NCBI GenBank assembly: GCA_964416175.1
Contig: CAYQDF010000006.1
Location: 526-64,525, forward strand
DNA length: 64,000 nucleotides
Direction of reading: 5' to 3'
From: an uncultured Anaerolineaceae bacterium
GTDB taxonomy: Bacteria > Chloroflexota > Anaerolineae > Anaerolineales > UBA4823
Shown here: positions 16,592 to 63,423 of the stretch, in pieces
How positions within the stretch are numbered: the stretch's first letter is position 1
Layout: each line of letters begins with the position of its first letter
Notes under the pieces: generated by a model
What the model saw: only the letters and a program-made list of their open reading frames with translations
The model's database searches: none
Told to the model about the DNA's origin: nothing
Made by a program: the position numbers and the translations under genes

Positions 16592-16609
16592 GGCTAACAG
16601 AGCACTGGT

Positions 16610-17881: not shown

Positions 17882-17886
17882 GCCGA

Positions 17887-21836: not shown

Positions 21837-22921
21837 AGGCATCGCCGGCATTGTCTGTTCAGACAGGTTCGGTGGACGCGCCTCCCGAACCGCAGGGTCG
21901 ATTCCTGCGCGCCTGCCGACGCCTGCCTGTGGACGCCACGCCAGTCTGGTTTATGCGCCAGGCCGGGCGCTACCTGCCGGAATACCGCGCCATCCGTGCG
22001 CGCTTCAGCCTGCTGGAGATCACCCGGCGACCGGAGGTCACGGCGGAGGTCACCCTGCAACCCGTTGATATCCTTGGAGTGGATGCAGCGATCTTGTTCG
22101 CCGATATCCTGCTCCCGCTCATCCCGCTTGGGCTGGACCTGGAATTCGTTTCCGGCGAAGGTCCTGTGATTCGAAACCCTGTCCGCAGCGCCGAAGGTGT
22201 TGCCCGCCTGCGGGAGGTGGACGTCCAAAGCGATCTTGGGCACGTCTTTGAGGCGATCCGCCTGGTCAGGCGGGAGCTGGAGGGGCGCGGCATCCCGCTG
22301 ATCGGCTTTGCGGGCGCGCCTTTCACGGTGGCTTCCTACATCGTAGAGGGCGGCCCTTCGAAGGATTTCCTGCATACCAAGCGGCTGATGTACACCTCCC
22401 CGGAGACCTGGCACCATTTGATGGAGAAGATCTCCAGTACCCTGGCGGCCTACCTGCTCTCCCAGGCGCAGGCGGGAGCGCAGGCAGTGCAGGTTTTCGA
22501 TTCCTGGGTGGGTGCTCTCAGCCCCGGGGATTATGTCCGCTATGCGCAGCCTTATTCCAGGCGAGTCCTTGCCGCAGTCCAGGCTGCCAATGTGCCGGTG
22601 ATCCACTTCGGTACGGGGACGGCAACCCTGCTGCAATCGATGAAGGAGGCAGGCGGCACCGTGATCGGCCTCGACTGGCGCATCCCGCTCGACGCAGGCT
22701 GGCAGACCGTTGGTTATGACCTTGCCGTGCAGGGAAACCTCGACCCGGTCCTGCTGTTCTCTCCCATGACCCTGCTTGGGGAGCGGGTTAAAGAAGTGCT
22801 GTCTCTGGCGGAAGGCCGTCCAGGGCATATCTTTAACCTGGGGCATGGCATCCTTCCAGAAACGCCGGTCGAAAATGTCCGGGCAGTTGTGGATCTGGTG
22901 CACGAATGGAGCGCCCGGTGA
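21833..22921 (+). CDS. hemE: Uroporphyrinogen decarboxylase
   Basis: Start moved to ATG 21833 (MKASPAL...), in frame with track ORF 21677. PVWFMRQAGRYLPEY signature. Confidence 0.9.
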   Translation: MKASPALSVQTGSVDAPPEPQGRFLRACRRLPVDATPVWFMRQAGRYLPEYRAIRARFSLLEITRRPEVTAEVTLQPVDILGVDAAILFADILLPLIPLGLDLEFVSGEGPVIRNPVRSAEGVARLREVDVQSDLGHVFEAIRLVRRELEGRGIPLIGFAGAPFTVASYIVEGGPSKDFLHTKRLMYTSPETWHHLMEKISSTLAAYLLSQAQAGAQAVQVFDSWVGALSPGDYVRYAQPYSRRVLAAVQAANVPVIHFGTGTATLLQSMKEAGGTVIGLDWRIPLDAGWQTVGYDLAVQGNLDPVLLFSPMTLLGERVKEVLSLAEGRPGHIFNLGHGILPETPVENVRAVVDLVHEWSAR

Positions 22922-24336
22922 AGCGGCTGGTCGTCGTGGGCGGAGGGATCGCCGGGCTGGCGGCAGCGTATTACGCGAGTCGGCTGTTCACCGATCGCCG
23001 CCAGGTGACCCTTGTCGAGCGAGAAGATCGTTGGGGAGGCAAAATTCGCACCGATCGCGTGGACGGGTTTGTCCTGGAAGCCGGGCCTGATACTTTTATC
23101 GCAGCCAAACCTTGGGCGGTGGACCTTTGCCGCGAACTTGGCATCGGGGAACGGCTGCGTGGCACCAACCCCCACAAGAAAAATACCTATATCTTGCGCA
23201 GAGGCCAGCTGCATCCCCTGCCTGGCGGGCTGTCGATGATGATCCCGACCCGGTTCGGAGACCTGGTCCGCAGTGGTTTAATTTCCTGGCCGGGCAAACT
23301 GCGCATGGGGCTGGATGTTCTGCTGCCCCCTGCCAATTGGAGCAGCTCTGAAGACGATGAGAGTATTGGGGAATTCGTGACCCGCCGCCTGGGGAGAGAG
23401 GCCTACGAAGCGCTGATCGAGCCGCTGATGAGCGGGATCTATGCCGGAGACGGCGACAGCCTGAGCCTCCTTTCCACGTTCCCTTATTTACGGGAGCTGG
23501 AGGCCAGACATGGAAGCCTGGTCCGGGGAGCACTGGCTGCGCGTGCCCGGCAGCCGAAGAATGGAAAAGGCCCAGCCAGCGGATCACGCAGCCTTTTCCT
23601 GACGCCACTTTCAGGGCTTGGGGAGATCGTGGAGACTCTCGTGGAGGTGCTGGAAGAGAGGGAGACGGGCATGATCATCGGGAATGGAGCCAGGCATCTT
23701 GAGAGGGTAGAGGGCGGTTACCGCCTGGAGCTGGAGGATGGATCCTGTCTGGAGGCGGAGGCTGTGATCCTGGCGACGCCAGCTTACATTTCCGCGAACC
23801 TCCTGGCAGGGGTTGCCCCTGGTCTGGCGGGGGAGCTGCGCGCCATCGAGTATGCGACGACAGCCACGGTCTCTCTGGGATACGAGGAAAGCGACCTGCC
23901 CCGGCCGCTGGACGGCTACGGCTACGCCATTCCTCGCCGGGAAGGGAGGAAGGCGCTGGCCTGTACCTGGACTTCGACCAAGTTCCCGCACCGCGCCCCA
24001 GCAGGAAAAGCTTTGCTGAGGGTGTTTATCGGCCGCGCCGGACAGGAGGATATCGCCTGGGATGAGGCGAGCCTGGAAGAGATCGCCAGGGAGGAACTCC
24101 GTGAGACGCTCGGGATCACAGCCAGGCCGCTCCTCACCCGGGTAACTGTCTGGGAGCGGGCAATGCCGCAGTATACGCTCGGACACGCTGCTCGCCTGGA
24201 CCGGATCAATGCCGGGCTGGCCGGACTCCCTGGCCTGGCTCTGGCCGGGAACGGATACAGGGGGATCGGTATCCCGGACTGCATCCGTTCTGGCGCGCGG
24301 GCGGTCGAGCAGCTGACAGGAGTGACCATCGGATGA
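22906..24336 (+). CDS. hemY: Coproporphyrinogen/protoporphyrinogen oxidase, HemY (CgoX) type
   Basis: 476 aa. FAD dinucleotide motif [15 protein letters not shown]. The C-terminal [13 protein letters not shown] is typical of HemY. Confidence 0.85.
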
Positions 24337-25616
24337 GGATCGAGAAATCCATCCAGCTCTTTGCGCAGGCTCGGCAGCTGCTTCCCGGCGGAGTCGATTC
24401 ACCGGTGCGAGCTTTTCGCGCTGTCGGGGGGCAACCCGTTTTCATCGAACGGGGCGCGGGGCCGTACCTGTATGACGTGGACGGCAACCGCTACATTGAT
24501 TATGTCCTTTCGTGGGGCCCTCTGATCCTGGGGCACGCGCATCCTGCTGTGGTCTCCGCCCTTAAAGAAGCCGTCGGGCGCGGGACGAGCTTCGGCGCGC
24601 CGAATCCGCTGGAGATCGAACTGGCGCGCTGGGTGCAATCCTTTATGCCCGGCATCGAGATGCTCCGCTTCGTTAACTCCGGCACCGAGGCCACGATGTC
24701 CGCCCTCCGGCTTGCGAGAGCGTTCACCCGGCGCGATAAGATCGTCAAGTTTGAAGGCTGCTACCACGGGCACGCGGATATGCTCCTGGTTCGGGCTGGT
24801 TCGGGCGTCGCCACGTTGGGGTTGCCCGACTCGCCCGGAGTGCCGGCGGCGACTGTCCAGGATACCCTTGTAGCGCGCTACAACGACCTCGAATCGGTCG
24901 AGCAGCTCTTTCGCCAGCATCCAGAGGAGATCGCGGCGGTGATCGTGGAACCAGTGGCTGGCAATATGGGAGTCGTGCCGCCCCTGGATGGCTTCCTGAA
25001 CGGTTTGCGTTCGCTCACCGCAGCACACGGCGCCCTGCTCGTCTTCGACGAAGTGATGACCGGATTCAGGGTCCATCCAGGCGGCGCTCAGGGGTTGTAC
25101 GGTATCCAGCCTGACCTGACCACTCTCGGAAAAGTGATCGGGGGCGGACTGCCGGTCGGCGCATACGGCGGGAGGCGGGAGATCATGGAGATGGTGGCGC
25201 CCGCGGGCCCTGTCTATCAGGCCGGTACGCTGTCCGGCAATCCCCTGGCGATGGCGGCGGGGATCGCGACGCTGGTAGAATTAGCCCGACCAGAAACCTG
25301 GATTCAGCTGGAGCGAACCAGCGAGCAGCTGGCAAATGGTTGCGCTCGAGCTGCCCGGGAGGTGGGCGTACCCGTGCGGCAGACGCGCGTCGGAACGATG
25401 TTCTCGCTGTTCTTCACGGAAGCGCCTGTTTATGACTGGCAGAGCGTCAAAGCCAGCGACATTGACCGGTTCGCACGATTCTTCCGGGCGATGCTGGCGC
25501 GCGGTATCTACCTGGCCCCCTCCCAGTTCGAAGCAGGGTTCGTCTCGACTGCCCACCGTCCGGAAGATATCCAGGATACGGTCGCAGCTGCGCTCGATGC
25601 GTTTAAGACACTCTAA
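24333..25616 (+). CDS. hemL: Glutamate-1-semialdehyde 2,1-aminomutase
   Basis: 427 aa. ATGA overlap with hemY. PLP lysine region [17 protein letters not shown]. Confidence 0.95.
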
Positions 25617-35305: not shown

Positions 35306-35311
35306 GATTTG

Positions 35312-35421
35312 TGTGGAGGCAGTGATCCACAGGCTTGGACTGGTCGCACGACCTCCAAGGGAGGGGAGCCTGCGGGGAGCCAATTGCGAAACCGGCCACA
35401 GGTCGGTTTCGTTTGCTTTTT
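35312..35421 (+). ncRNA. Candidate small RNA or cis-regulatory leader of about 110 nt, unclassified
   Basis: Bounded by the promoter above and an intrinsic terminator. Internal helix UGGAGG/CCUCCA (35314-35319 / 35352-35357). G-rich repeat GGGGAGCC x2. No ORF. Confidence 0.4.
35388..35421 (+). terminator. Intrinsic terminator
   Basis: GAAACCGGCC-ACA-GGTCGGTTTC hairpin (one G-U pair) followed by GTTTGCTTTTT. Confidence 0.75.
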
Positions 35422-35685: not shown

Positions 35686-37992
35686 ATGAAACGGCTCGTT
35701 TCTTTGTTCATATTGCTAGCCCTTGTAGCCGGACTGTTCGCGATGCCAGCCCTATCCGGTCCGGTTTCTGCGGGCAATATCTCTTCCAAGGATAGAACCG
35801 TAGACCTGATCGTCAAGACCGATGGGGCCAGCAGTTCGGTAATCAGCAAAGTCAATGCGCTGGGAGGTACAGTAAAATACGCCTATAAGAACGTCCCGGT
35901 CCTGGCGGTCAGAATTCCAGTGGATAACTACCTGGCGCTGCTGAACACCCCGGGGGTCTTGACAATCGTGAAGGACCGGCTGATCTCACTGAGCGCAGAG
36001 GTCGGGTTGAAGGAAAAGCCAGCCCCCGAATCGTATCTGGTGCAGGACGCGGCGGGCATCGCCGTGAAAGCCCTGGATCCGAAATCTCTGGACCTCGCCG
36101 CACTCCCGGAAGGTTACGCGAACTTTATTTACACTGGCGCTATCGACGTCTGGGAAGCGACAGACTTTGGCGCGGGCACCGTGGTGGCGGTAGTTGACAC
36201 GGGCACAGTCCCGAATGTCTGCCTTGCCCACGCAGTGATCGGCGCGCCGGGATTCCCGGATGGCTACAATGCCACCGGCGACGGCGTTCCCGCGACCGAT
36301 CCGCTGAATCACTGGCACGGCACACACGTGGGAGGTGTGATCGCTTCGGCCTGTGCGCTGGATTTCACGAGCGATCCCGGCGATCCGCTCTACCAGGCGA
36401 TCTCTGCCTACCTGCCGTGGTCGGTCGATTTCGTCCCGATCTTAGGCCAGGCGCCGCTCGCCCAGCTTTACCCGGTGAAGGTCTTTGACGTGACTGGCGG
36501 TTCGACGCCCACCTCGGTCATCCTCGATGGGCTCGACCACCTGCTGACTCTCAAGCGGGATGGTCTTTTGGATGTTGATGTGGTGAACATGAGCCTCGGC
36601 GGTTCATCGCTCTACGATGGCAAGGATATCTTCGACACATTCTTGCTCGAATTCCGCAAGGAGCACATCCTGGTCGTGACTTCCGCCAGCAACGATGGGC
36701 CGATCCCGAACAGCATCGGCTCCCCGGCCACCTCCTTCCGGACGCTCGCCGTTGGGGCTTTGGATTATGCACCGTCCTCCCGCGTTCTCTATGAATACCT
36801 GGGCCTCATCTCTGGCCTTGGATCAGGCCAGGGGATGGTGATGCGGCCGACGGATGAAGTGCGGGTGACGAATTTCTCCAGCCGAGGTCCCATGAGTGAC
36901 GGACGCATGGGCCCGGACATCTCCGCGCTGGGTTTGTGGAACTTCCACGCCGGCCCGCAAAATGAACTGCGCTGGGCGGGTGGGACCTCGTTCTCCTCCC
37001 CCACCGTGGCAGGCGGCGCTGCGCTGATCAACTCCTACTACGAGAACAAGCACGGCTCGGATACGCCGATCCATCGCTGGTATAAATCCCTCCTCAAATC
37101 GGCGGATCCCAGCGTGGTCGGCAGCAGCTGGCAGGGAGCGAACGACGTCGGATTCGGCGCCCTGGACATGGTCGCCGCGCTGAAGACCTTCCGCAATCCG
37201 CCAGTCCTCATGGATTACCCGGTCTACACCGGCGAACTCGCGCCGAGCATCCTCGGCGATCCTGTCAAGTTCCAGACGGACGTTTATGAGAGCTCCACGA
37301 TCACTCTGAACCCGAGCGAGACGCACACCGCGGTCTTCTCCATCGCCCCGTTCACCAGCAAGGTGACCATCGAGTTCTTCGATATCGTCGCGCCGGACAA
37401 CTCGGCGTACGCGTACTGGCCGAACGCCCTCGAGGTCCACGTCCAGAGCGCCAAGCGCACGGCTGTAGCCCACCCGGTTGGCCTCTACTGGTATCCCTTC
37501 GCTTACGGGGATGCCTTCTCCATTGAGATCGAAGACGGTCCGTGGACTGTGGCGGGCACTCCCTGGACATACCAGCCCATGGAACCTGGCTTGATGAAAG
37601 TCTCCCTGGTGGGCGACTTCTCGAACGAGTCCCCGGTCAGCTTCAAGATGCGCGTGACGCGGGAGAACGATGGCCTCAAGCGTGGCAGGCTGCTGGCCAG
37701 CTCCGACATCGGAATGGGCGATGCGTTCGTCATCCCGGTGGATGTCCCTGCCGGGCTCAGCTCGGTCACTTTCGACACGGTCTTCACCCGGAACTGGACG
37801 AAGTTCCCCACCAGCGACATCGATATGCTCATCTTCGATCCGGATCTGAACCTGGTCTCGATCGACGGCGCAACCCTGAACGCGCCGGAGCGGGCTGTCA
37901 TCGAGAATCCCGCAGCTGGAACCTGGTACATCTACATCGAAGGATTCGAGATGTACCGGAAGGATCACTTCAAACTCTGGATGAAGAAATAG
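35686..37992 (+). CDS. Secreted S8 (subtilisin-like) serine peptidase with C-terminal pre-peptidase-like domain
   Basis: 768 aa. Signal peptide. Catalytic triad motifs VAVVDTGT, HGTHVGG, GGTSFSSPTVAG. Confidence 0.9.
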   Translation: MKRLVSLFILLALVAGLFAMPALSGPVSAGNISSKDRTVDLIVKTDGASSSVISKVNALGGTVKYAYKNVPVLAVRIPVDNYLALLNTPGVLTIVKDRLISLSAEVGLKEKPAPESYLVQDAAGIAVKALDPKSLDLAALPEGYANFIYTGAIDVWEATDFGAGTVVAVVDTGTVPNVCLAHAVIGAPGFPDGYNATGDGVPATDPLNHWHGTHVGGVIASACALDFTSDPGDPLYQAISAYLPWSVDFVPILGQAPLAQLYPVKVFDVTGGSTPTSVILDGLDHLLTLKRDGLLDVDVVNMSLGGSSLYDGKDIFDTFLLEFRKEHILVVTSASNDGPIPNSIGSPATSFRTLAVGALDYAPSSRVLYEYLGLISGLGSGQGMVMRPTDEVRVTNFSSRGPMSDGRMGPDISALGLWNFHAGPQNELRWAGGTSFSSPTVAGGAALINSYYENKHGSDTPIHRWYKSLLKSADPSVVGSSWQGANDVGFGALDMVAALKTFRNPPVLMDYPVYTGELAPSILGDPVKFQTDVYESSTITLNPSETHTAVFSIAPFTSKVTIEFFDIVAPDNSAYAYWPNALEVHVQSAKRTAVAHPVGLYWYPFAYGDAFSIEIEDGPWTVAGTPWTYQPMEPGLMKVSLVGDFSNESPVSFKMRVTRENDGLKRGRLLASSDIGMGDAFVIPVDVPAGLSSVTFDTVFTRNWTKFPTSDIDMLIFDPDLNLVSIDGATLNAPERAVIENPAAGTWYIYIEGFEMYRKDHFKLWMKK

Positions 37993-41909: not shown

Positions 41910-42386
41910 ATGAGATTCGTCCTGTTCACTGGCATCGCTGCACTGCTGCTCGTCGTCGGCCTGGGAATGTATGTCACCGATTTCACGGCCTACCTGGGCA
42001 ATAACCCCACCACCTGCAACAACTGCCACGTGATGGACGCCGTTTACGAAGGCTGGTTCCACGGCGGTCACAAGCAGTGGGCTGTCTGCGCAGACTGCCA
42101 TACCCCTCACCCCCTGATCCCTAAATACTACGTAAAAGCGCTTTCCGGCTACCATCACGTCACCGCCTTTGTTTTCGGAAAGATCCCGGATGCGATCCGG
42201 GCCAAGGAGTCGTCGCGCCGGGTGGTCCAGGAGAACTGCATCCGCTGCCACGCGGAGACGATTGCGGAGACAAACGAAGGACTGATGGACTCGGACCGCT
42301 ATTGTTTCGAGTGCCACCGCAGCGTGGCGCACGGAGAGCGCGGTATCTCTCTGCTGCCATACCAACACAAGGAGGAAGGCCAATGA
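41910..42386 (+). CDS. nrfH: Tetraheme cytochrome c NrfH (NapC/NirT family)
   Basis: 158 aa. N-terminal TM helix. Four CxxCH motifs (CNNCH, CADCH, CIRCH, CFECH). Confidence 0.9.
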   Translation: MRFVLFTGIAALLLVVGLGMYVTDFTAYLGNNPTTCNNCHVMDAVYEGWFHGGHKQWAVCADCHTPHPLIPKYYVKALSGYHHVTAFVFGKIPDAIRAKESSRRVVQENCIRCHAETIAETNEGLMDSDRYCFECHRSVAHGERGISLLPYQHKEEGQ

Positions 42387-43687
42387 GAATCTCCAAGACG
42401 GGTGCTGTCCTGGCTGGCGTCATTGTCCTGTTAACCGCGGCTGTGATCGGCTTGCTTATATACATCAACAACCAGCCTCCGCCCATGCGCGGCATTGCGC
42501 CTCTCGTGGAGATCGCCGAGATGGAGCCCGATTCGTCCAGGTGGGGTGTCAATTTCCCCAACCAGTACTCCACACTTTTGCTGACAGAAATGAACAATGA
42601 GCGGACGGCTTACGGCGGCTCCAACCCCTTCTCCAGGCTGGAGAACAACCCGCGCCTGCTGACCTTGTTCGCTGGCTACAGTTTTTCGAAGGATTACAAC
42701 GAAGAGCGCGGCCACCTGAACAGCCTCACAGATGTTCGCGCCACGGGCAGGGTGAATGAGACCACTCCCGGCACCTGTTATTCGTGCAAGACGGCTGCGA
42801 ACCCGCAGCTGTGGAGCGAGATGGGCATGGCGGAATATGACAAGACCCCTTTCAGCGAGCTGGGAAAGCTTATCGAACACCCCATCGGCTGCGCCAATTG
42901 CCACGAAGCCAACACCATGCGCCTGATCGTGACCAACCCTGCACTGGAGGAGGCGCTGGAGGTGCAGGGCAGGGACTGGCGGACGTTCACCCGCCAAGAG
43001 ATGCGCACTGTGGTTTGCGCCAATTGCCATGTCGAATACTATTTCGCTGGAGAGGGGAAATACCTGACCTTCCCATGGGCAGGTGGGACGGACATCGAGT
43101 CGATCTCCGCTTACTACGCCGATCTGCAGTTCAAGGACTGGGACCACCCGCAATCAGGCGCGCCCATGATCAAGATGCAGCACCCCGAGTACGAGATCTT
43201 TACCGCCAACAGCACCCACTATAACGCTGGAGTGGCCTGCGCTGACTGCCATATGCCCTACACCCGCGACGGAGCAGCCAAGTTCTCGACCCACAATGTG
43301 AAAAGCCCGCTCCTGAACGCGGAAACCGCCTGCGGCGCCTGCCACACCGACGTGGCGTACGTCACCAGCCGGGTATCCATCATCCAGAACCAGGTGAGCG
43401 AGAGGATGGGCGCGGCCGAGGAAGCTATTGTGGCGGCGATCAAGGCGATCGAGGCGGCGGCAGCATCGCCGGGGGCAGACGCCACCCTGCTGGAGGAGGC
43501 CCGCCAGCTGCACCGGGAAGCCCAGCTGCGGTGGGACTTCATCTCTGCCGAGAACAGCATGGGTTTCCACAATCCGGAAGAAGCCCTGCGCATTCTTGCA
43601 TCAGCCACGGACCTGGCGCGCCAGGCGCAGCTCAAGGCGGTCCTGGCTGGGGGCGGCTTAGTAGGGGGCGAGACCAGCGGAAATTGA
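42383..43687 (+). CDS. nrfA: Pentaheme cytochrome c nitrite reductase NrfA (ammonia-forming)
   Basis: Start moved to ATG 42383 (ATGA overlap with nrfH). Active-site CxxCK (CYSCK) plus four CxxCH (CANCH x2, CADCH, CGACH). Confidence 0.9.
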   Translation: MRISKTGAVLAGVIVLLTAAVIGLLIYINNQPPPMRGIAPLVEIAEMEPDSSRWGVNFPNQYSTLLLTEMNNERTAYGGSNPFSRLENNPRLLTLFAGYSFSKDYNEERGHLNSLTDVRATGRVNETTPGTCYSCKTAANPQLWSEMGMAEYDKTPFSELGKLIEHPIGCANCHEANTMRLIVTNPALEEALEVQGRDWRTFTRQEMRTVVCANCHVEYYFAGEGKYLTFPWAGGTDIESISAYYADLQFKDWDHPQSGAPMIKMQHPEYEIFTANSTHYNAGVACADCHMPYTRDGAAKFSTHNVKSPLLNAETACGACHTDVAYVTSRVSIIQNQVSERMGAAEEAIVAAIKAIEAAAASPGADATLLEEARQLHREAQLRWDFISAENSMGFHNPEEALRILASATDLARQAQLKAVLAGGGLVGGETSGN

Positions 43688-43808: not shown

Positions 43809-44639
43809 ATGCTGGAAAATATCGACCTCTCCCTGAAGCTCGGGAAGAAAGAATACAGGCGGTTAAAACCGGAGCTGCAGAACCACCTCTACGCCGTGCA
43901 GAAAGCGTCCTGGGATGCCGGCATCCCGGTGATCATCCTCTTCGAGGGCTGGGATGCAGCCGGGAAGGGAACGGCGATCCAGCACCTGACCACCAGGCTT
44001 GATCCGCGCGGTTTCAAACTTTATCCCATCCGAGCAGCGCGCACGTACGAGAAAAAGCGCCCCTGGCTGTGGCGATTCTGGCTCAAGATCCCCGGCCGGG
44101 GCGAGTGGGCGATCTTCGACCGCTCGTGGTACGGCCGGACGCTGGTGGAACGCGTGGAAAATCTGATCCCGGAATCCGAATGGCGGACGGCTTACCGGGA
44201 CATCGTCGACTTCGAGGGCACCCTGGCCGATGACGGTTATCTGATCATCAAGCTGTTCTTGCATATCAGCCGCCAGGAGCAGAAGCGGCGGTTTGAGAAA
44301 TTGTCCCGGGATCCCCTGAACGCCTGGCACGTCGAGCCCGAAGACTGGGAGCACCATCGCCATTACAGGGAATGGCTGTTGGCTTACGAAGAGACTTTCG
44401 AACGCACCGAGGCAGAGTGGGCACCCTGGACGATCGTGGAAGCCACCGATCAACGCTATTCCCTGATCAAGGTCTACCGGACGATCATCGGCGCGCTGGA
44501 GGAGAGGCTTTCTGCGGCAGGCGCTTCCCCCGACCCGGCTTTGTGGCTGAAAAGTGCGGCGGGCGAGGGCGAGGAAAGCCGCGTCGAAGAAGTTATCCAA
44601 GAGGAGCCCGTCGGGTTGCCGGCCTCCCAGTTAAAATAA
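43809..44639 (+). CDS. ppk2: Polyphosphate kinase 2 family protein (single domain)
   Basis: 276 aa. Walker A-like FEGWDAAGKG, FDRSWYGR lid motif. Confidence 0.85.
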   Translation: MLENIDLSLKLGKKEYRRLKPELQNHLYAVQKASWDAGIPVIILFEGWDAAGKGTAIQHLTTRLDPRGFKLYPIRAARTYEKKRPWLWRFWLKIPGRGEWAIFDRSWYGRTLVERVENLIPESEWRTAYRDIVDFEGTLADDGYLIIKLFLHISRQEQKRRFEKLSRDPLNAWHVEPEDWEHHRHYREWLLAYEETFERTEAEWAPWTIVEATDQRYSLIKVYRTIIGALEERLSAAGASPDPALWLKSAAGEGEESRVEEVIQEEPVGLPASQLK

Positions 44640-44685
44640 CAACCAGCACACGCTTCCGCTTATTGCAGGCAAGAAGATTGCGCAC

Positions 44686-45492
44686 ATGCTCAAGACAGTC
44701 GATCTGACATCCGCATTAGAAAAAGAAGAATATCTCCATTCTTTGGTGAAGTACCAGGTTGCTCTGCACAGCCTGGGATATCAGGTCTATGTCCAGCAGC
44801 GCCCGGTGGTGATGGTCTTCGAGGGGTGGGACGCAGCCGGGAAAGGGGGAGCCATCAAACGCGTCACCGAGAAGCTTGACCCGCGCGGCTACGTGGTCTA
44901 TTCGATCGCCACCCCCCAGGGTGAGGACGCAGTCCGCCATTACCTCTATCGATTCTGGAGGAGGCTGCCCGAATCCGGGCAGATCGCCATCTTCGACCGC
45001 AGCTGGTACGGCCGCGTCCTGGTCGAGCGCATCGAGGGGTTCTGCACCGAAGAGGCCTGGAAGCGCGCCTACCGGGAGATCAACCAGTTCGAGCGGCAGC
45101 TGGTCGATTTCGGCACCATCCTGTTCAAGTTCTGGATGCAGATCAGCTCCGATGAACAGCTGCGGCGCTTCGAAGCCCGCGCCGGGGATGTCCTGCGCAG
45201 CTGGAAACTCACCGAAGAGGACTGGCGCAATCGGGAGAAGTGGGACCAGTACGAAGAAGCGGTCAACGACATGCTGCTCAAGACCAGTACGGTGACGGCT
45301 CCATGGACGATCGTCGCGGCCAACAACAAGTGGTACGCGCGCGTGAAAGTGCTCAAAACGCTTGTCGACAGGCTGAGCCAGGAGCTACAGTACGACCCCT
45401 TTGCCGATAGCGTTGACCGGGCAGGCAAGAAAGGCAGCTCTGCTGGTTCGAAGAAGAGGAAAAAGAAGGAAAAGTCCACCGCTTTGGGTTAG
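44686..45492 (+). CDS. ppk2: Polyphosphate kinase 2 family protein (second paralog) with Lys-rich tail
   Basis: 268 aa. FEGWDAAGKG, FDRSWYGR. C-terminal KKGSSAGSKKRKKKEK. Confidence 0.85.
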   Translation: MLKTVDLTSALEKEEYLHSLVKYQVALHSLGYQVYVQQRPVVMVFEGWDAAGKGGAIKRVTEKLDPRGYVVYSIATPQGEDAVRHYLYRFWRRLPESGQIAIFDRSWYGRVLVERIEGFCTEEAWKRAYREINQFERQLVDFGTILFKFWMQISSDEQLRRFEARAGDVLRSWKLTEEDWRNREKWDQYEEAVNDMLLKTSTVTAPWTIVAANNKWYARVKVLKTLVDRLSQELQYDPFADSVDRAGKKGSSAGSKKRKKKEKSTALG

Positions 45493-45510
45493 GCGGCGGA
45501 GGGAAATAGG

Positions 45511-47652
45511 ATGACAGCACAGCTCAAAGAATCGAAGGAGGGAGTCGAAGCCAGGATCGACCTGGACGACCCAAAACTGTACATCAACCGCGAGCTCAGC
45601 ATGCTGGAATTCCAGCGGCGAGTGCTGGAGGAAGCCCAGGACGTGGACAACCCCCTGCTGGAACGGGTCAAGTTCTTGGCTTTCCTGGGCATCAACCTGG
45701 ACGAGTTTTTCATGGTGCGCGTTGCCGGGTTAAAGAAGCAGGTCGCGGCCGGCGTGGTCGACCTGCCGCCGGATGGGATGACGCCAGCCGAGCAGGTTGC
45801 TGCGATCCGCAAGCTGGCCCTGGAGATCATGGTCGCCGGGCAGGAATGCCTGACGAAAGACCTGCTGCCTCGGCTCGACAAAGCCGGTATTCACGTCCTG
45901 GATTACGCCCAGCTCAACGATAAGCAGAGGGAAAGCGTCGACAGCTATTTCGACGAAGTGGTCTTCCCGGTGCTGACTCCAATGGCCTTCGACCCCGGAC
46001 ATCCTTTCCCCCACATCTCCAACCAGAGCCTGAACCTGGCGGTGCTCATCCGCGACAAGACCGACCACTTCGCCCGGATAAAAGTGCCCGGCACCCTGCC
46101 GCGCCTGGTGCCGATCAAGCGCTCATCGGGGAGCGTGCGGCGGGACGGCACGGTGCCCCACCACCATTACTTCGTCTGGCTGGAACAGGTCATCGCCGCT
46201 AACCTTCCCGACCTCTTCCCCGGGATGAAGATCGTAGAATCCCACCCCTTTCGGATAACACGCGACGCCGACGTGATGATTCAAGAACTGGAAGCCTCCG
46301 ACCTCCTCGAAAGCATCGAACAGGGCGTGCGCAAACGCCGCTTCGGGTCGGTCGTGCGCCTGGAAGTAAATCCCCAAATGCCAAATCACGTCCGGAATAT
46401 CCTGATTCAGAACCTGGAGATGGATCGCAACGACGTCTATACCCTGGAAGGTCCTCTTGGCTCGAGTAACTTGATGGGTCTCTACCAGATCGATCGCTAC
46501 GATCTCAAGGATGTGCCTTTCGTCCCCGCGATCCCATCCGAGCTCAAGGGGGAGACATTCGACGGCAATATCTTCGCCGCCATCCGGAAGGGTGACATCC
46601 TGCTCCACCATCCCTACGATTCGTTCACCCCGGTGGTGGATTTCCTGCACCTGGCCGCCAGGGATCCGGACGTGCTGGCGATCAAGCAGACCCTGTACCG
46701 GGTCGGCCGCAACTCGCCGGTCGTCAAGGCCTTGATGGAAGCCCGGGAGAACGGCAAGCAGGTGGCCGTTTTGGTGGAGCTGAAGGCCCGCTTCGACGAG
46801 GAGAGCAACATCGGCTGGGCTCGGGCGCTGGAGCGGGAGGGCGTGCATGTCATTTACGGCCTGCTCGGATTGAAAACCCACTCCAAGATCGCCCTGGTCG
46901 TGCGCAAAGAAGGGGAGAGCATCCGGCGGTATGTGCACCTGGCGACGGGAAACTACAACTCGGTCACCGCGCTGTCTTACGAGGACATCGGCCTGTTCAC
47001 CTGCGACGAGCAGATCGGGGCGGACGCCACCGATCTGTTCAACTACCTGACCGGCTATTCGAACAAGCAAGATTACCGCAACCTGCTCGTCGCCCCCGTC
47101 AACTTACGGGAAAGAATGGTGGCGTTGATCGAGCGTGAGGCTGATCTGCAGGGAAAAGGGGAGCAGGGGCATTTGATATTCAAAATAAACTCGCTGGTGG
47201 ACAAAGGCATCATCAAAGCCCTGTACCAGGCCTCGATGGCTGGGGTCAAGATCGACCTGATCGTGCGCGGCATGTGCTGCTTGCGGCCAGGATTGCAGGG
47301 GATCAGCGAGAACATACGCGTGGTGAGCGTGGTCGGGCGCTTCCTGGAGCACAGCCGGATATATTATTTCCGCAACGGCGGAAAAGAGGAAATCTACCTG
47401 GGCAGCGCGGACCTGATGCCGCGCAACATCAACAGCCGGGTGGAAGTGCTTTTCCCGGTCGAGGACCAAGGTCTGATCCGCTACCTGCGCGACGACGTGC
47501 TGGCCGAGCACCTGGCAGACAATGTTAAAGCGCGCGCCATGAGGCCGGATGGAACGTTCAGAAAACCGACCCGGGCGCCGGAGGATGCGCCGCGCAACGT
47601 CCAGGTGCGCCTGATCGAGAAGCGCCTGGCGAAGCGCGGCCTCCCATCCTGA
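45511..47652 (+). CDS. ppk: Polyphosphate kinase 1
   Basis: 713 aa. LYINRELSMLEFQRRVLEEA N-terminus, autophosphorylated His region (LKTHSKIALV), two PLD-like HKD domains. Confidence 0.95.
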   Translation: MTAQLKESKEGVEARIDLDDPKLYINRELSMLEFQRRVLEEAQDVDNPLLERVKFLAFLGINLDEFFMVRVAGLKKQVAAGVVDLPPDGMTPAEQVAAIRKLALEIMVAGQECLTKDLLPRLDKAGIHVLDYAQLNDKQRESVDSYFDEVVFPVLTPMAFDPGHPFPHISNQSLNLAVLIRDKTDHFARIKVPGTLPRLVPIKRSSGSVRRDGTVPHHHYFVWLEQVIAANLPDLFPGMKIVESHPFRITRDADVMIQELEASDLLESIEQGVRKRRFGSVVRLEVNPQMPNHVRNILIQNLEMDRNDVYTLEGPLGSSNLMGLYQIDRYDLKDVPFVPAIPSELKGETFDGNIFAAIRKGDILLHHPYDSFTPVVDFLHLAARDPDVLAIKQTLYRVGRNSPVVKALMEARENGKQVAVLVELKARFDEESNIGWARALEREGVHVIYGLLGLKTHSKIALVVRKEGESIRRYVHLATGNYNSVTALSYEDIGLFTCDEQIGADATDLFNYLTGYSNKQDYRNLLVAPVNLRERMVALIEREADLQGKGEQGHLIFKINSLVDKGIIKALYQASMAGVKIDLIVRGMCCLRPGLQGISENIRVVSVVGRFLEHSRIYYFRNGGKEEIYLGSADLMPRNINSRVEVLFPVEDQGLIRYLRDDVLAEHLADNVKARAMRPDGTFRKPTRAPEDAPRNVQVRLIEKRLAKRGLPS

Positions 47653-47695
47653 GGCAGGGTCTGGATACAGATGGAGAAGCGATTCAGGAAAAGGT

Positions 47696-49633
47696 GTGAG
47701 GGATTCGATGGGCTTACTTTTGAAGGAAGCTGAAAGACCGGACGTGGAGGCCCTGGCGAAGCGCGGCGGGACGCCGGCGGTTCGCCGCCGCGCGCAGGCG
47801 CTCTTGCTCTACGACGAGGGCTTGCCGACCAGGGAAGTTGCGGGCCGGGTAGGCCTGTCCGCCAGCCAGACGCGATACTGGAAACAGCGCTACCAGGAGC
47901 AAGGCATAGCTATTTTCGCCAGGGAGGACCTGCGAGCCGTCCTGTTCTCCGAAGCTCTGGTCCCCGAAGAAAATGGATTGGGACGGACTGCGCTCGAAGC
48001 GCTGGAAGGCGACGGAGATCTGGCCCTGGAAGGAGCAGCGCGCGGCGCGGTCGAAGGCGAGCTGCCTGCTCCGGGAGAGGCTGTCTCCCCGGAAGAGCAG
48101 GGACAGCGGCCGCCAGCCCACCTGCGCCTGGCGGAGCACCGGCGCGACCTGGCGCTGGCGCTGTTCGACGGGACGCAGCCTGTCCACCAACTGTACTCCC
48201 GCGAACGTCGGCTGCTTGAGGCGGCTGCCCTCATCCAGCACCTCGAGGAAGATCAAAGGGGTGGTGGACAGGGCAAAGCAGGGCGCATATTAATCCTCTC
48301 CAATCCCCTGGCAGAGCTCGACCCGGAGGAAAACCAGATCGTAGAGTCTATCCTCGCATTCCAGCGTGGAGGCGTTAAACGTCTTGCCAGCGCTGGACCT
48401 GGAGAGGAGCATCCTCCCACGGAACGAACCGCGCTCATCCTGGCTGCCCTGTTGCGCATCGCGTTCGGCCTGGACGCGTCGGGAAGCCGGCAGACCCGGA
48501 TCCTGTCTATCGAAAGCCTGCCCGAAACGTTGAATATCCGGATAAAGGGCGCTGGGAAGGACGCCCGGTCTGCCGAAAGAAAGGCCAGGCTGTGGTCGGC
48601 GTTGTTCGGGCAGGCGGTCAGCATCCAGACCGACCGGTCCGGGAGGGAAAGTCAGACGCGGAACCGCCTGCAGGTCCTCCTGGACCGGAAAAGCCCCGGC
48701 GTGGAAGCGACCGACACCCTGGCGGAGGCCGGCCGGAAAGTGCTGGGCTACCACTTCGCCGAGATGGTGCGCCACGAAGAGGGCACCCGTTCCGGGGAGG
48801 ACATCGAGGAGCTGCACGACATGCGCGTCGCCACCCGGCGGATGCGGGCGGCCTTCGAGGTCTTCGCCGGCGGTTTCAAGCCTAAAGCGATCGATCCTTA
48901 CCTCAAAGGGCTGCGCGCCACGGGGAGGGCTCTGGGCCGTGTGCGCGACCTGGACGTCTTCATGGAGAAAGCCCGGCAGTATCTGGAATCCCTCCCGGAG
49001 GAAGCGCGTGGCGGGCTGGATCCCCTGTTGGAAGCCTGGCGGGAGGAGAGAGAGAAGAGCCGCGGCGAGATGCTGGCGCACCTGAACAGCGAGGACTACA
49101 CGGTGTTCAAACGCAGGTTCCTGGTGTTCCTCACTACACCGGGAGAAGGCGCAAGCCGGGCAGTCCCACCCACGCCGCAGCTGGTGCGCGAAGTCCTGCC
49201 TGTTCTGGTCTACACCCGCCTGGGCGCCGTGCGCGCCTTTGCCCCGGTCCTGGATTCCGCCACCCTCGACCAGCTGCACGCCCTGCGCATCGAATTCAAG
49301 AAGCTGCGCTACACGCTGGAATTCTTCCGCGAGGTCCTCGGCGGGGAGGCCAGGGGGCTAATCGAGGAGATCAAGGCCCTCCAGGACCACCTGGGGGACC
49401 TGAACGACGCCGACGTGGCCTGCCAGATCCTGCGCGACTTCCTGGACGAGTGGGAAAACCGCCAGCTGATGGTGCCGATCGACGAGCGGGAAGATCCGGA
49501 GCCGATCGTGGCCTACCTGGCGACCCGGCACGCCGAGCGCCACCGCCTGGTCGTCACCTTCCGGGAGGCGTGGGCGCGCTTCGACCGGCCGGAGGTCCGC
49601 GCCCGGTTCGCCGCTGCTGTGGCCGTGTTGTAA
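47696..49633 (+). CDS. HTH - degenerate Ppx/GppA C-terminal-like region - CHAD domain protein
   Basis: 645 aa. N-terminal HTH (LPTREVAGRVGLSASQTRYWKQRYQEQG). Central LLEAAALIQHLE segment resembles the Ppx HD region but lacks HD. C-terminal CHAD (HDMRVATRRMRAAFEVF, LHALRIEFKKLRYTLEFF). Confidence 0.75.
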   Translation: MRDSMGLLLKEAERPDVEALAKRGGTPAVRRRAQALLLYDEGLPTREVAGRVGLSASQTRYWKQRYQEQGIAIFAREDLRAVLFSEALVPEENGLGRTALEALEGDGDLALEGAARGAVEGELPAPGEAVSPEEQGQRPPAHLRLAEHRRDLALALFDGTQPVHQLYSRERRLLEAAALIQHLEEDQRGGGQGKAGRILILSNPLAELDPEENQIVESILAFQRGGVKRLASAGPGEEHPPTERTALILAALLRIAFGLDASGSRQTRILSIESLPETLNIRIKGAGKDARSAERKARLWSALFGQAVSIQTDRSGRESQTRNRLQVLLDRKSPGVEATDTLAEAGRKVLGYHFAEMVRHEEGTRSGEDIEELHDMRVATRRMRAAFEVFAGGFKPKAIDPYLKGLRATGRALGRVRDLDVFMEKARQYLESLPEEARGGLDPLLEAWREEREKSRGEMLAHLNSEDYTVFKRRFLVFLTTPGEGASRAVPPTPQLVREVLPVLVYTRLGAVRAFAPVLDSATLDQLHALRIEFKKLRYTLEFFREVLGGEARGLIEEIKALQDHLGDLNDADVACQILRDFLDEWENRQLMVPIDEREDPEPIVAYLATRHAERHRLVVTFREAWARFDRPEVRARFAAAVAVL

Positions 49634-56271: not shown

Positions 56272-56508
56272 ATGAAGAAAGTCGAGCTGGTGTATTGTGC
56301 CGTCTGACATTACACAGAGCGCGCTGCCAGTCTGGCGGCTGAGCTGTTGAAGGAGTTCGAGTTCCAGATCGAGAGTCTAACCCTGGTGCCTTCCGATGGA
56401 GGCCGGTTTGAAGTCATGGTCGATGACCAGCTCGTATATTCCAAGCTCCGGACCGGCCGCCACGCCGAACCCGGGGAGATAGCCGGGCTGATTCGCAAAC
56501 TGATTTAA
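56272..56508 (+). CDS. SelW/SelT/SelH (Rdx) family selenoprotein, CxxU motif; TGA 56305-56307 read as selenocysteine
   Basis: Not in the ORF track. AAGGAGA SD 8 nt before the ATG. Translation: MKKVELVYCAVUHYTERAASLAAELLKEFEFQIESLTLVPSDGGRFEVMVDDQLVYSKLRTGRHAEPGEIAGLIRKLI. Matches the Rdx pattern YCxx(C/U)...ELL...P..GG.FEV.VD..L[IV][YW]SK...G. A hairpin follows the TGA. Confidence 0.8.
56318..56345 (+). promoter_or_regulatory. SECIS-like stem-loop downstream of the SelW-like UGA
   Basis: GCUGCC-AGUCU-GGCGGC (56323-56339) with outer AGC/GCU pairs. The apical loop lies about 22 nt after the UGA and contains GU. Confidence 0.5.
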
Positions 56509-59618: not shown

Positions 59619-60701
59619 ATGAACATCGCCAGTGTACTTCAAGGTTTCGTGGCGCTGCTGTGGGTGGCAGTGGTTGGCATGATCATCCTGGCCGTGGTGC
59701 GCGCCTCGCGTGGCTTTAAAGTCAGGCAGCTCTCTGCCACGATCCTGGCTGTCGCCGTTGCGGCAGTCATCCTGACGTCGGTCAGCGCAGGGCTGGTCTT
59801 CATCCGCCCGGAGGAGCGCGGCGTGGTGCTCTCTGCGCTCCAGCCCAACGGAATCCGCCCCGCAGCGCTCCAGCCGGGCTTGCGCTGGATCATCCCGTAC
59901 TTCGAATCGGTGGAGCGCTACCTGATCTCCCAGCAGACGTACACCATGTCGATCGCTCCTCTCGAAGGCCAGATGCAGGGAGACGATTCAGTCACTGCCC
60001 GCACGTCCGACGGGCAGGAGATCTTCATCGATGCCTCCGTGATTTACGCAGTGAACCCCGATGAGGTCGTGAAGGTGCACATCGCCTGGCAGGACCGGTA
60101 TACGATGGAGCTCGTTCGCCCGCTGGCCCGCGGCGTGATCCGCGACGCAGTTTCCCAGTTCGGCGTCGAGGAAGTTGTCACCACGAAGCGCTTTGAACTA
60201 CAGCAGCAGATCTACGAAAGCATGGCTGCGAAAATGGAGGCCAACGGTCTCATCCTGACCGATTTCGTCCTCCGCAACATCACCTTCTCTCCGGAGTACG
60301 CCGCCTCGGTCGAACAGAAGCAGATCGCCGAGCAGCAGGCGCAGCAGGCGGCCTTCGTCGTCGAGCAGCGCCGCCAGGAAGCGGAACAGGCGCGGCAGGT
60401 CGCCCAGGGCCAGGCGGACGCGGTCGTGATCCGGGCGCAAGGCAGCGCCGAAGCCCGCCTGATCGAAGCGGAAGCCGAGGCGAAAGCACTCCAGCTGCTG
60501 GCAGACGCCGTGCGAGAAAATCCAGAGCTGCTCACGTACCAGTACATCGCCAAGATCGCTCCGGGCATCCAGGTGATGCTGCTGCCAAGCGACAACCAGT
60601 TCTTGTTCCCGCTGCCGACGCTGGAACCTGGAATGGGCAGCGCGATCCCTCTGCCGACTCCAGAACCCACCCCATCCCCGACCCCGGAGGCCAATCCTTA
60701 A
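59619..60701 (+). CDS. SPFH/band-7 (prohibitin-like) membrane protein with Pro-rich tail
   Basis: 360 aa. N-terminal TM helices, SPFH core (GLRWIIPYFESVERY), coiled-coil AEQQAQQAAF...; C-terminal PTPEPTPSPTPE. Confidence 0.85.
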   Translation: MNIASVLQGFVALLWVAVVGMIILAVVRASRGFKVRQLSATILAVAVAAVILTSVSAGLVFIRPEERGVVLSALQPNGIRPAALQPGLRWIIPYFESVERYLISQQTYTMSIAPLEGQMQGDDSVTARTSDGQEIFIDASVIYAVNPDEVVKVHIAWQDRYTMELVRPLARGVIRDAVSQFGVEEVVTTKRFELQQQIYESMAAKMEANGLILTDFVLRNITFSPEYAASVEQKQIAEQQAQQAAFVVEQRRQEAEQARQVAQGQADAVVIRAQGSAEARLIEAEAEAKALQLLADAVRENPELLTYQYIAKIAPGIQVMLLPSDNQFLFPLPTLEPGMGSAIPLPTPEPTPSPTPEANP

Positions 60702-60704: not shown

Positions 60705-61769
60705 ATGTCAGAAGTTTTTCCGTCCGGACGCCAGATCCGCCTGACGACGCTGTCGAGCTGCGCGGGTTGAGCGTCGAAGTTAAGCGCTGAAGCGCTGGCG
60801 CAGGTGCTGCGCCCCATAGAGGGCATGTTTCACGCCGCGGATTTCCCGGACCTGCTGGTGGGTCTGGGAGAGCCGGACGATGCGGCTGTCTGGCGGCTGA
60901 CCGACGACCGCGCCCTGGTGGTGACGACCGACTTCTTCACCCCCGTGGTGGACAACCCGTATGATTACGGGGCGATCGCCGCCGCCAACAGCCTCTCGGA
61001 CATCTACGCCATGGGCGGGAAGCCTTTCCTGGCGCTCAACGTGGCTGCCCTGCCGCCCGATCTGCCGGCAGAGATCAGCGGCGAGATCCTGCGCGGCGGC
61101 GCCGAGAAAGCGCGGGAGGCTGGAGTTGTGATCGCCGGCGGGCACACCGTCCAGGACAAGGAGCCCAAGTACGGCCTGATCGCCCTGGGGTTCGTCGACC
61201 CCGCTCGCATGATCACCAAGCGCGGCGCAGCACCAGGCGACGTGCTCGTGCTGAGCAAGCCCCTGGGCTTCGGCACCATCACCACCGCCCTCAAGCGCGA
61301 GCAGGCCGACCCCACCGACGTATCAGAGGCGGTCGGCTGGATGAAGCGCTTGAATAATGCGGCTTCTGAGCTGGCGGTGGATTGCGGAGTGCGCGGGGGG
61401 ACGGACGTGACCGGCTTCAGCCTGCTGGGGCACGGATGGGAAATGGCCCAGTCCTCCGGAGTGGGACTGCGGTTCTCCTTTGGGAAAATCCCCTTCGTTC
61501 GCGGGGCGCGCCGCTATGCCCAGGAATGGATCTTCCCCGGCGGGACCTCCGACAACCGGCTGTATTTCAGCCCGCACGTGCGCTTCTCGGAAGAGATCGA
61601 CGAGCCCGCCCAGATGCTGCTCTTCGATGCCCAGACCAGCGGAGGTCTGCTGCTGGCGGTGCCCCCTGGGGAAGTCGAGCGCCTGTTCTCCCGCGCCGCC
61701 GAGGCCGGGCAGGTGCTATGGCAGGTGGGCGAGGTGGTGGAGGGGGATGATATCGAGGTGACAGCTTAG
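60705..61769 (+). CDS. selD: Selenide, water dikinase (selenophosphate synthetase), Sec-containing form; TGA 60768-60770 read as selenocysteine
   Basis: Track ORF 60804-61769 is a SelD lacking its catalytic N-terminus. Extending in frame through the TGA to ATG 60705 gives MSEVFPSGRQIRLTTLSSCAGUASKLSAEALAQVL, which is the G(C/U)xxK active-site loop. ATG lies 4 nt after the upstream stop. Confidence 0.85.
60797..60813 (+). promoter_or_regulatory. SECIS-like hairpin downstream of the selD UGA
   Basis: GGCGCA-GGUGC-UGCGCC, with a GGU-containing apical loop about 33 nt after the UGA. A smaller AGCGC-UGAA-GCGCU hairpin at 60783-60796 is an alternative. Confidence 0.45.
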
Positions 61770-61794: not shown

Positions 61795-63423
61795 ATGACG
61801 CTTGAATTCACTTCTCGCCGCTCACCCGTCCTTGGCGCCCGCGGCATGGTGGCGACGTCGCAGCCCTTGGCAGTGGCTGCCGGGCTGGAGGTTCTGGCCC
61901 TGGGCGGCAACGCCGCCGACGCCGCCGCGGCGGCTGCCGCGGCCCTCAATGTCACCGAGCCGACCTCGACCGGAATCGGGGGCGACTGCTTCGCCCTGTA
62001 TTACGACTCAGCCAGCCGCCAGGTAAGCGCCCTGAACGGTTCCGGGCGCGCCCCGGCCGCCCTGACCCTGGAGCGCCTGGAGCGGGAAGGCTACCGGCAG
62101 GCGCTGCCGCCTCTTCACCCATACACGATCACCGTGCCGGGGGCCTGCGCCGGGTGGTGCGACCTGGTGGAGAGGCACGGCCGGTTCTCGATCGCAAGGG
62201 TGCTTGCGCCGGCGATCCGGCTGGCCGAGGAGGGCTTCCCGGTGGCGCCGGTCACCGCGTATTTCTGGGCGCGCGGCGCAGAACGCCAGCTGCGCCAGGC
62301 CCGGGGCGGCTCGGAGCTCACCATCGACGGGCGCGCCCCGCGCGCCGGAGAAGTCTTCCGCAACCCGGGGCTGGCCAGGACTCTGAGGGCCGTGGCCGAA
62401 GGGGGAAAAGAGGCCTTCTACCGGGGAGCGATCGCCGCCGCCATCGCGGCCATCGTCCAGGAGGCCGGCGGCTGCCTGGCTGAATCCGACCTGGCGGCCC
62501 ACCACAGCACCTGGGACGAGCCGATCAGCACCACGTACCGCGGCCTGCGGATCTGGGAATGCCCGCCGAACGGGCAGGGGTTGGCCGCGCTGTTGGCGCT
62601 GAACATCCTGGAAGGCTTCGATCTGGCGGGCACGCCGCCGCTCTCGGCGGAGCGCCTGCACCTCGAGATCGAGTCCCTGCGCCTGGCGTTCGCAGACGCC
62701 CGCTGGTACGTCGCCGACCCCGCGGCGCAGCCGGCGCCTCTGGAAGACCTCCTTTCGAAAGACTACGCCGCCGTGCGCCGCAAATTGATCGACCCTGCCC
62801 GGGCGTCCCTGGATCAGGCGCGGGGAACGCCCGCCGCCGCTTCGGACACGGTGTACCTGAGCGTTGTCGACGAGGAGGGCAACGCCTGCTCTTTCATTAA
62901 CAGCAACTACATGGGGTTCGGGACGGGCATCGTTCCTCCTGGCTGGGGGTTCACGCTGCAGAACCGCGGCCACAACTTCAGCCTCGAACCGGGCCACCCC
63001 AACGCCCTGGCGCCCGGCAAGCGCCCGTATCACACCATCATCCCGGCCCTGGCGACGCGGTCCGGTGCGTCGGGCGAGGCGCTCTACGCCTGTTTTGGCG
63101 TGATGGGGGGATTCATGCAGCCCCAGGGGCACCTGCAGATAGTGGCGGCCCTGGTCGACGACGGGCTGGACCCACAGGCCGCCCTCGACCGGCCGCGGTT
63201 CTGCATTACGGATGGGGAAGCTGGCGGGGGGGTCGCTTTAGAGGCAGGCATCCCCATCGAGACGGTGGAGCAGCTGGAGCGGATGGGTCACCCGGTGGAG
63301 GGGATCGAAGGCCATGCCCGGGCGCTGTTCGGGCGCGGGCAGGTCATCCTGCGCGACGCCGCGAGCGGCATCCTGTGGGGCGGCAGCGACCCGCGCGCGG
63401 ATGGGTGCGCCATGTGCCTGTAA
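61795..63423 (+). CDS. ggt: Gamma-glutamyltransferase
   Basis: 542 aa. Autoprocessing and nucleophile Thr region (ASDTVYLSVVDEEGNA) and GGSDPRADG near the C-terminus. Confidence 0.9.
   Translation: MTLEFTSRRSPVLGARGMVATSQPLAVAAGLEVLALGGNAADAAAAAAAALNVTEPTSTGIGGDCFALYYDSASRQVSALNGSGRAPAALTLERLEREGYRQALPPLHPYTITVPGACAGWCDLVERHGRFSIARVLAPAIRLAEEGFPVAPVTAYFWARGAERQLRQARGGSELTIDGRAPRAGEVFRNPGLARTLRAVAEGGKEAFYRGAIAAAIAAIVQEAGGCLAESDLAAHHSTWDEPISTTYRGLRIWECPPNGQGLAALLALNILEGFDLAGTPPLSAERLHLEIESLRLAFADARWYVADPAAQPAPLEDLLSKDYAAVRRKLIDPARASLDQARGTPAAASDTVYLSVVDEEGNACSFINSNYMGFGTGIVPPGWGFTLQNRGHNFSLEPGHPNALAPGKRPYHTIIPALATRSGASGEALYACFGVMGGFMQPQGHLQIVAALVDDGLDPQAALDRPRFCITDGEAGGGVALEAGIPIETVEQLERMGHPVEGIEGHARALFGRGQVILRDAASGILWGGSDPRADGCAMCL

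Follow-up and report, generated by a model that had tools for sequence, protein, structure and literature searches.

Does the in-frame TGA at positions 60768-60770 of a 64,000-nucleotide (nt) stretch of contig CAYQDF010000006.1, from an uncultured Anaerolineaceae bacterium, terminate translation, or does it specify selenocysteine (Sec) within selD, the gene encoding selenide,water dikinase (SelD)? The open reading frame (ORF) list for this stretch, referred to below in its full length as the window, contains for selD only a GTG-started ORF of 321 amino acids (60804-61769), and the public gene call of an identical protein (P0001) starts later still, at ATG 60825, giving 314 amino acids. On direct reading, a longer frame runs from ATG 60705-60707 to TAG 61767-61769 with the TGA, at codon 22, as its sole in-frame interruption. 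The observation in the initial annotation that the frame is open upstream of the called ORF but for this one TGA therefore stands, and the translation that it offered from ATG 60705 is the same as that obtained by re-translation, MSEVFPSGRQIRLTTLSSCAG*ASKLSAEALAQVLRPIEGMF..., in which the asterisk denotes TGA 60768-60770. Judged from sequence comparisons, SelD is most probably synthesized full-length with Sec encoded by UGA 60768-60770 at the equivalent of Cys17 in the E. coli enzyme, a reading to which we assign a probability of roughly 0.93. The features concerned are:

60705..61769, + strand: complete coding sequence of selD, 354 codons followed by a TAG stop; the predicted Sec is at codon 22.
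60768..60770, + strand: UGA predicted to be read as Sec (residue 22), the counterpart of Cys17 in E. coli SelD.

For protein searches, the UGA was substituted by Cys in the 354-amino-acid product. This read-through protein matches TIGR00476 with 354.3 bits (cutoff 125) over profile positions 1-308 and NF002098 with 331.5 bits (cutoff 299), whereas the called 314-amino-acid product obtains 326 bits against TIGR00476 and matches only from profile position 34, a gain for the read-through form of profile positions 1-33 and 28 bits. According to precomputed Pfam assignments, P0001, the called product of identical sequence, has AIR-synthase-like N- and C-terminal domains (PF00586 and PF02769). Among PDB entries, the read-through protein matches E. 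coli SelD best (3u0o, E=7.5e-70), followed by the SelD of 2yye/2zod (E=2.6e-62). By these measures the gene at 60705-61769 clearly encodes SelD, the selenophosphate synthetase first proposed, and selenophosphate synthesis is the predicted activity. The alignment with 3u0o extends over query residues 9-346 and chain residues 4-336, and places the UGA codon opposite Cys17 and Lys25 opposite Lys20, with SSCAG-U-ASK, the UGA being read through, aligned with HGAGCGCK. The segment behind the UGA is, on this alignment, the N-terminal catalytic loop of SelD. The N-terminal extension thus aligns as the initial annotation had anticipated, with Sec and Lys in the places of Cys17 and Lys20 of the E. coli loop, and the called ORF is without this glycine-rich loop, TIGR00476 positions 1-33 being missing from it. 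The Cys17/Sec and Lys20 positions of the loop are needed for catalysis in established SelD biochemistry.

Relatives were scanned with one genome per species, and the best 80 of 588 tblastn-confirmed relatives were analysed. These 80 loci, which are 54-77% identical to the window and come from many independent assemblies, belong nearly all to metagenome-assembled genomes (MAGs) of Anaerolineales or other Chloroflexota, and their tblastn alignments cross the stop, running from query residues 1-12 through residue 352. At the UGA position the codon is TGA in 78 of the 80 loci, TGC in one and TGT in one, and TAA or TAG in none. The peptide 5' of the TGA, (I/V)(R/K)LT(S/T/A)...(C/A)(A/S/G)G, is conserved among the relatives, and at codons -9 (Leu), -8 (Thr) and -1 (Gly) the amino acid is invariant with third-position entropies of 1.31, 1.51 and 0.98 bits, respectively (n=79); invariant amino acids with free third positions point to selection on a translated protein, and selection at the protein level is seen on either side of the UGA. 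The TGA is also present in a JGI metagenome contig that is 99.7% identical to the window (L001) and in two loci with ~91% DNA identity from two other data sets (L083 and L084), and its recurrence in independent assemblies excludes the sequencing error that had been raised as a concern. The only two of the 80 loci without a TGA, L051 (3040-3099) and L054 (3064-3123), have TGC/TGT and encode CAGCAAKL where the window has CAG-U-ASKL, so that the sole substitutes are Cys codons, in agreement with the claim that the UGA at the Cys17 position specifies Sec. The prediction that annotators would shorten selD is also borne out, as all 120 of the 120 best database homologs of the product are N-terminally short, with lengths of 302-331 amino acids and 85-93% of the protein covered; one NCBI entry among the SelD homologs carries the label 'partial'.

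A hairpin, GGCGCA-GGUGC-UGCGCC, had been noted ~27 nt after the UGA, and it is found at 60797-60813, beginning 26 nt past the last base of the TGA. It is the second of two adjacent hairpins, designated a and b, that together make up a candidate Sec insertion sequence (SECIS) element:

60783..60796, + strand: hairpin a, AGCGC-UGAA-GCGCU, a variable proximal hairpin that starts 12 nt after the UGA.
60797..60813, + strand: hairpin b, GGCGCAG-GUG-CUGCGCC, the putative SECIS apical stem-loop and presumed SelB-binding site (alignment columns 30-46).

The 60 nt from the UGA onward align gap-free in all 79 TGA-type sequences. Hairpin b, which can be drawn as a 7-bp stem with a 3-nt loop or as 6 bp with a 5-nt loop, has 94% of its cells paired in these 79 sequences, with compensatory changes at pair 31-45 (GC in 50, GU in 13 and AU in 8) and pair 36-40 (GC in 62, AU in 3 and GU in 2, a standard pair in 67 of 79) and one AU at pair 32-44. 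The loop, G36-G37-U38-N39-C40, has an invariant G37 and U38 (G60804 and U60805 of the window). For most of the region downstream of the UGA, third positions have an entropy of 1.3-2.0 bits; this value is 0.10, 0.17 and 0.00 bits in the stem codons Leu(+9), Ala(+10) and Leu(+13) of hairpin b, and in the loop codon Val(+12) the third base is free (1.86 bits). Every one of the 79 sequences forms a hairpin a of 3 bp or more, and 52 form one of 4 bp or more, with stems that differ by clade (AGCGC/GCGCU, GGGUC/GACCC, GGGCC/GGCCC, GGUCA/UGACC and CUGCCG/CGGCAG). In a fixed register, 73% of its cells pair, but the register shifts among clades and hairpin a was hence assessed sequence by sequence.

Folding was compared with that of synonymous recodings drawn from the codon usage of each gene itself. 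The mean z values are -2.9 for hairpin a, -2.8 for hairpin b and -2.6 for a+b, with 87% of the sequences having p<=0.05 for a+b, and -0.3 and +0.1 for two control segments farther downstream. In the window, the 37-nt a+b segment has a predicted free energy of -19.4 kcal/mol, the tandem-hairpin fold accounts for 88% of the ensemble, and the segment differs from shuffles with z -2.56 (2/200 shuffles). RNAalifold recovered only 5 pairs of hairpin b. Taken across the relatives, the substitution and folding patterns show RNA-level selection acting on the predicted hairpins downstream of the UGA. Both hairpins are lost in the Cys-type loci L051 and L054, in which a+b has -7.1 and -8.5 kcal/mol versus a mean of -16.6 kcal/mol. 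This loss is the control expected if the element serves UGA recoding, and the two loci look like cases of Sec-to-Cys conversion followed by decay of the SECIS element.

Bacterial SECIS elements have been modelled with a 3-9 nt loop, a 4-16 bp upper stem and a minimum free energy of <= -7.5 kcal/mol (PMC13188914, Fig. 2A legend), a G within the first two nucleotides of the loop, most often as N1-G-[G/U]-N-N2 with N1 and N2 paired (PMC13188914), and an apical loop located 16-37 nt from the UGA (PMC13188914). Hairpin b agrees with this published description on four of four counts, with a G-G-U-N-C loop, a 7-bp stem, a distance of 33 nt and a minimum free energy (columns 28-48) of -12.1 kcal/mol in the window, the mean over the 79 sequences being -10.6 kcal/mol. 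A SECIS prediction had been suggested as a check on the hairpin, and it is supported by this agreement and by the conservation of the hairpin. Two loci depart from the pattern: in Roseilinea and Brachytrichaceae MAGs (L074:3046-3105 and L075:3046-3105), the TGA is kept with hairpin b disrupted (GGCCGCCGUGUUGCGUC), and folding predicts a single long stem that rises from the UGA and is capped by hairpin a. This would be a different SECIS layout for selD, and the element is then not uniform across the phylum.

The same contig carries a second gene with an in-frame TGA, located 4.5 kb upstream of selD:

56272-56508, + strand: SelW-like (Rdx family) gene, in-frame TGA 56305-56307, hairpin 56323-56339.

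From ATG 56272 through the TGA this gene encodes MKKVELVYCAV-U-HYTERAAS..., with a CxxU redox motif, and the 78-amino-acid product matches the full PF10262 profile with 73 bits; the version reported by gene callers is a 53-amino-acid remnant (56347-56508). The TGA is kept in 5 relatives and is followed, 15 nt downstream, by a hairpin, GCUGCCA-GUC-UGGCGGC, with a 7-bp stem, a GUN loop and compensatory CG-to-UA changes in one relative (L088). Two selenoprotein genes with matching SECIS types argue strongly that the organism decodes Sec. When both strands of the window were scanned for a TGA with a GUN-loop hairpin (stem of 6 bp or more) located 14-37 nt downstream, four sites were obtained, two of which are those of selD and the SelW-like gene. 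The sites at 52286 (+) and 61948 (-), which run antisense to the genes for PriA and GGT, were dismissed. None of the remaining TGA-interrupted extensions of the window is convincing; they are same-frame upstream genes or short stretches of low G+C content at third codon positions.

Several results weigh against the decoding of this UGA as Sec. Folded as a single sequence, the 63 nt after the UGA are not better than shuffles (z -0.17) and adopt a different structure and, with only the 37-nt segment significant, the decisive support for an RNA element is comparative. No Rfam family is found at the element with gathering or permissive thresholds, five weak matches (E 2.6-9.5) being noise. The loop of hairpin b, at 33 nt from the UGA (32 nt if the 5-nt loop is drawn), is near the upper limit of 37 nt. 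Genes for SelA, SelB and tRNA-Sec were not found in the 64-kb window, and the decoding machinery is thus assumed; ARAGORN detected no tRNA-Sec in the window and 60 loci, and a Pfam survey of the 49 window ORFs detected no SelA and no SelB. In Chloroflexota relatives, selA, selB and tRNA-Sec were likewise not found within 3-10 kb of selD. Synteny is conserved in the 10-kb flanks of four relatives, in the order Memo, Rdx, Dtd, DHODH-like, band-7, selD and GGT, with no sel genes in these flanks.

A tblastn search of all loci with E. coli SelA and SelB gave a match only in L076 (3001-6347), a MAG labelled Spirochaetales in which selD, selA and selB lie in a row, the only such locus near selD among the relatives. 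The L076 SelD groups with the Chloroflexota type (54% identity) and its gene has the SECIS hairpin with compensatory changes (GGAGCAG-GUG-CUGCUUC). As a database query, the L076 SelA returned only Spirochaete-type SelA; with a Spirochaete-typical SelA alongside a Chloroflexota-type SelD, selD may, from these affinities, have been transferred horizontally. For the genome represented by the window, we infer that selA, selB and selC exist elsewhere. In the literature, Chloroflexi are one of the phyla credited with the Sec-decoding trait (PMC5322559) and with selenoproteins (PMC1794560, Table 2).

Other explanations of the TGA have to be set against these data. An error in sequencing or assembly would appear as just such a lone in-frame stop in a single assembly, and the two orthologs with TGC or TGT at this codon could be taken to indicate that the gene is a Cys-type selD so affected, or a pseudogene with a recent inactivating mutation. 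There is virtually no chance that this is correct given the same TGA in 78 of 80 loci from independent MAGs and in L001, L083 and L084, with TAA and TAG never present, and a conserved RNA hairpin that is present with TGA and absent with TGC/TGT. It is extremely unlikely that the UGA is a true stop that ends a 21-codon upstream ORF, with a shortened SelD then translated from GTG 60804 or ATG 60825 and working without the glycine-rich loop, even though this would match the gene calls for the 120 best homologs and both a GTG and an ATG are available downstream of the UGA. The 21 upstream codons, in which L, T and G are invariant and their third positions free, show selection at the protein level and align to SelD model positions 1-33 and the E. 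coli catalytic loop, whose Cys17/Sec and Lys20 positions are those required for catalysis. GTG 60804 (the Val34 codon) forms the loop of hairpin b and is not conserved as a start, and the Cys-type orthologs translate straight across the UGA position.

Translation across the UGA could also occur with Trp, Gly or Cys inserted, by way of a reassigned code, a suppressor tRNA or near-cognate read-through. Low-level insertion of Cys or Trp at UGA is known in bacteria, and the failure to find Sec machinery genes in the window or near selD in Chloroflexota relatives would be consistent with such decoding. It is nevertheless very unlikely to be the explanation here. TGA terminates 19 of the 46 genes in the window, which argues that there is no genome-wide reassignment of the genetic code, and the only alternative codons in orthologs encode Cys, at the catalytic Cys/Sec site. 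The SECIS-type hairpin downstream of the UGA is under selection, a second gene has a UGA in a CxxU motif together with the same hairpin type, and the Sec-decoding trait has been reported in Chloroflexi (PMC5322559).

With Sec as the favoured decoding, the mRNA just 3' of the UGA would fold during translation into two adjacent hairpins. Hairpin b (60797-60813), with its 7-bp G+C-rich stem and G-U-N loop, would be the bacterial SECIS that recruits SelB-GTP-Sec-tRNA(Sec), and this complex would deliver Sec, rather than a stop, as the UGA enters the A site. Delivery of Sec by SelB and a SECIS element is an established bacterial pathway (PMC1794560, PMC13188914), and by analogy SelB presumably binds hairpin b. 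Hairpin a (60783-60796) would probably absorb 14 of the 26 nt that separate the UGA from the stem of hairpin b; any role for it, perhaps as a spacer or helper, is speculative. Once hairpin a is folded, ~12 nt would be left single-stranded, close to the 15 nt that precede the SECIS stem of the SelW-like gene. Selenophosphate, the product of SelD, is needed for Sec-tRNA(Sec), and the synthesis of SelD would therefore depend on its own product, so that a Sec-containing SelD makes selenium use self-reinforcing. We propose only tentatively, and with more doubt than confidence, that the SelD SECIS in this Chloroflexota clade is a two-hairpin element in which the SelB-binding hairpin is unusually far (33 nt) from the UGA and a proximal hairpin, variable in sequence yet preserved in structure, takes up 14 nt of that distance. 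If true, this would be a distinct class of bacterial SECIS architecture, with spacing set by RNA structure instead of sequence length.

Sec-containing SelD proteins are present, for example, in Haemophilus influenzae and Aquifex aeolicus, and the PDB entries 2zod/2yye are a Sec13Cys mutant of the Aquifex enzyme; in these chains SSGCAAK aligns with CAG-U-ASK of the window. The window SelD resembles other bacterial Sec-SelD proteins in family, in the loop position of Sec and in having the predicted SECIS element within the coding sequence right after the UGA. It differs from them in lineage (Anaerolineales/Chloroflexota MAGs), in a loop located 33 nt from the UGA after a second, variable hairpin, and in that the public gene calls of its clade are short throughout. 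E. coli SelD (3u0o), whose loop GAGCGCK aligns with CAG-U-ASK of the window, the Lys20 equivalent included, has instead a Cys and no SECIS element, and its Cys19 is Ser24 in the window SelD. The apex of the E. coli fdhF SECIS, GCA-GGUC-UGC, a sequence confirmed in 5419 of 5426 E. coli genomes, resembles GCA-GGUGC-UGC of hairpin b. Each is a G+C-rich stem inside the coding sequence whose small loop exposes G-U. In fdhF, however, ~20 nt separate the UGA from the loop, which caps one long stem that has a bulged U, whereas the loop of hairpin b is 33 nt away on a perfect 7-bp stem, with a separate hairpin in between. The bSECISearch consensus model (PMC13188914) is a single stem-loop, and the tandem proximal hairpin a lies outside it. 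Among the selenoprotein families of prokaryotes, only one is more widespread than SelD (PMC1794560, PMC13188914). The Sec-SelD arrangement is long known and routinely missed by gene callers, and the case in the window is a correct but ordinary one, with the tandem-hairpin SECIS as its sole mildly new aspect, a small lead on SECIS spacing.

In the Anaerolineales/Chloroflexota clade, essentially every public selD gene call is without the catalytic N-terminus, which amounts to a clade-wide annotation error. With the gene calls for both selD and the SelW-like gene shortened, metabolic reconstructions of these bacteria, which are abundant in sediment, sludge and the subsurface, may under-report selenium use. 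The near-invariant motif GGCGCAGGUNCUGCGCC, located 26 nt after the UGA, would be an easy marker for mending selD gene calls.

The start assigned to selD is consistent with orthologs, in many of which the conserved N-terminus begins with a Met at or near the position of ATG 60705. The SPFH/band-7 gene upstream ends with TAA 60699-60701, 3 nt before this ATG, and there is a possible ribosome-binding site:

60686..60690, + strand: GGAGG, seen by direct reading, with a putative ribosome-binding function, 14 nt 5' of the selD ATG.

The spacing of 14 nt exceeds the usual 5-10 nt. Downstream of selD, ARAGORN reported an 85-nt tRNA-Gly(gcc) at 62968-63052 (-), opposite the gamma-glutamyltranspeptidase gene, which is probably a false positive, as Rfam at its gathering threshold finds no tRNA there.

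Elsewhere in the window, a contiguous haem biosynthesis cluster (14906-25616, + strand) includes genes for a chlorite-dismutase-like protein (HemQ-type), ferrochelatase, glutamyl-tRNA reductase, porphobilinogen deaminase, uroporphyrinogen-III synthase, aminolaevulinic acid (ALA) dehydratase, uroporphyrinogen decarboxylase, a HemY-like amine oxidase and a class-III aminotransferase (HemL-like), a gene set that suggests the coproporphyrin-dependent route. Two ORFs, at 12849-13712 (+, 287 amino acids) and 20607-21623 (-, 338 amino acids), the latter on the other strand from the haem cluster and between two of its genes, have no Pfam match even at E 0.1. They may be unknown genes, or spurious ORFs that reflect a G+C-rich genome. 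A polyphosphate cluster (43809-49633, + strand) contains two PPK2 genes, PPK1 and a gene for a CHAD-domain protein with an N-terminal helix-turn-helix, and a cytochrome c552 (NrfA-type) gene is located just upstream at 42302-43687. A c-di-GMP-II-GAG riboswitch aptamer (RF03169) is present at 35306-35404 (+), with 44.6 bits against a gathering score of 40, ~280 nt upstream of a gene for a subtilase-family protease of 768 amino acids (35686-37992).

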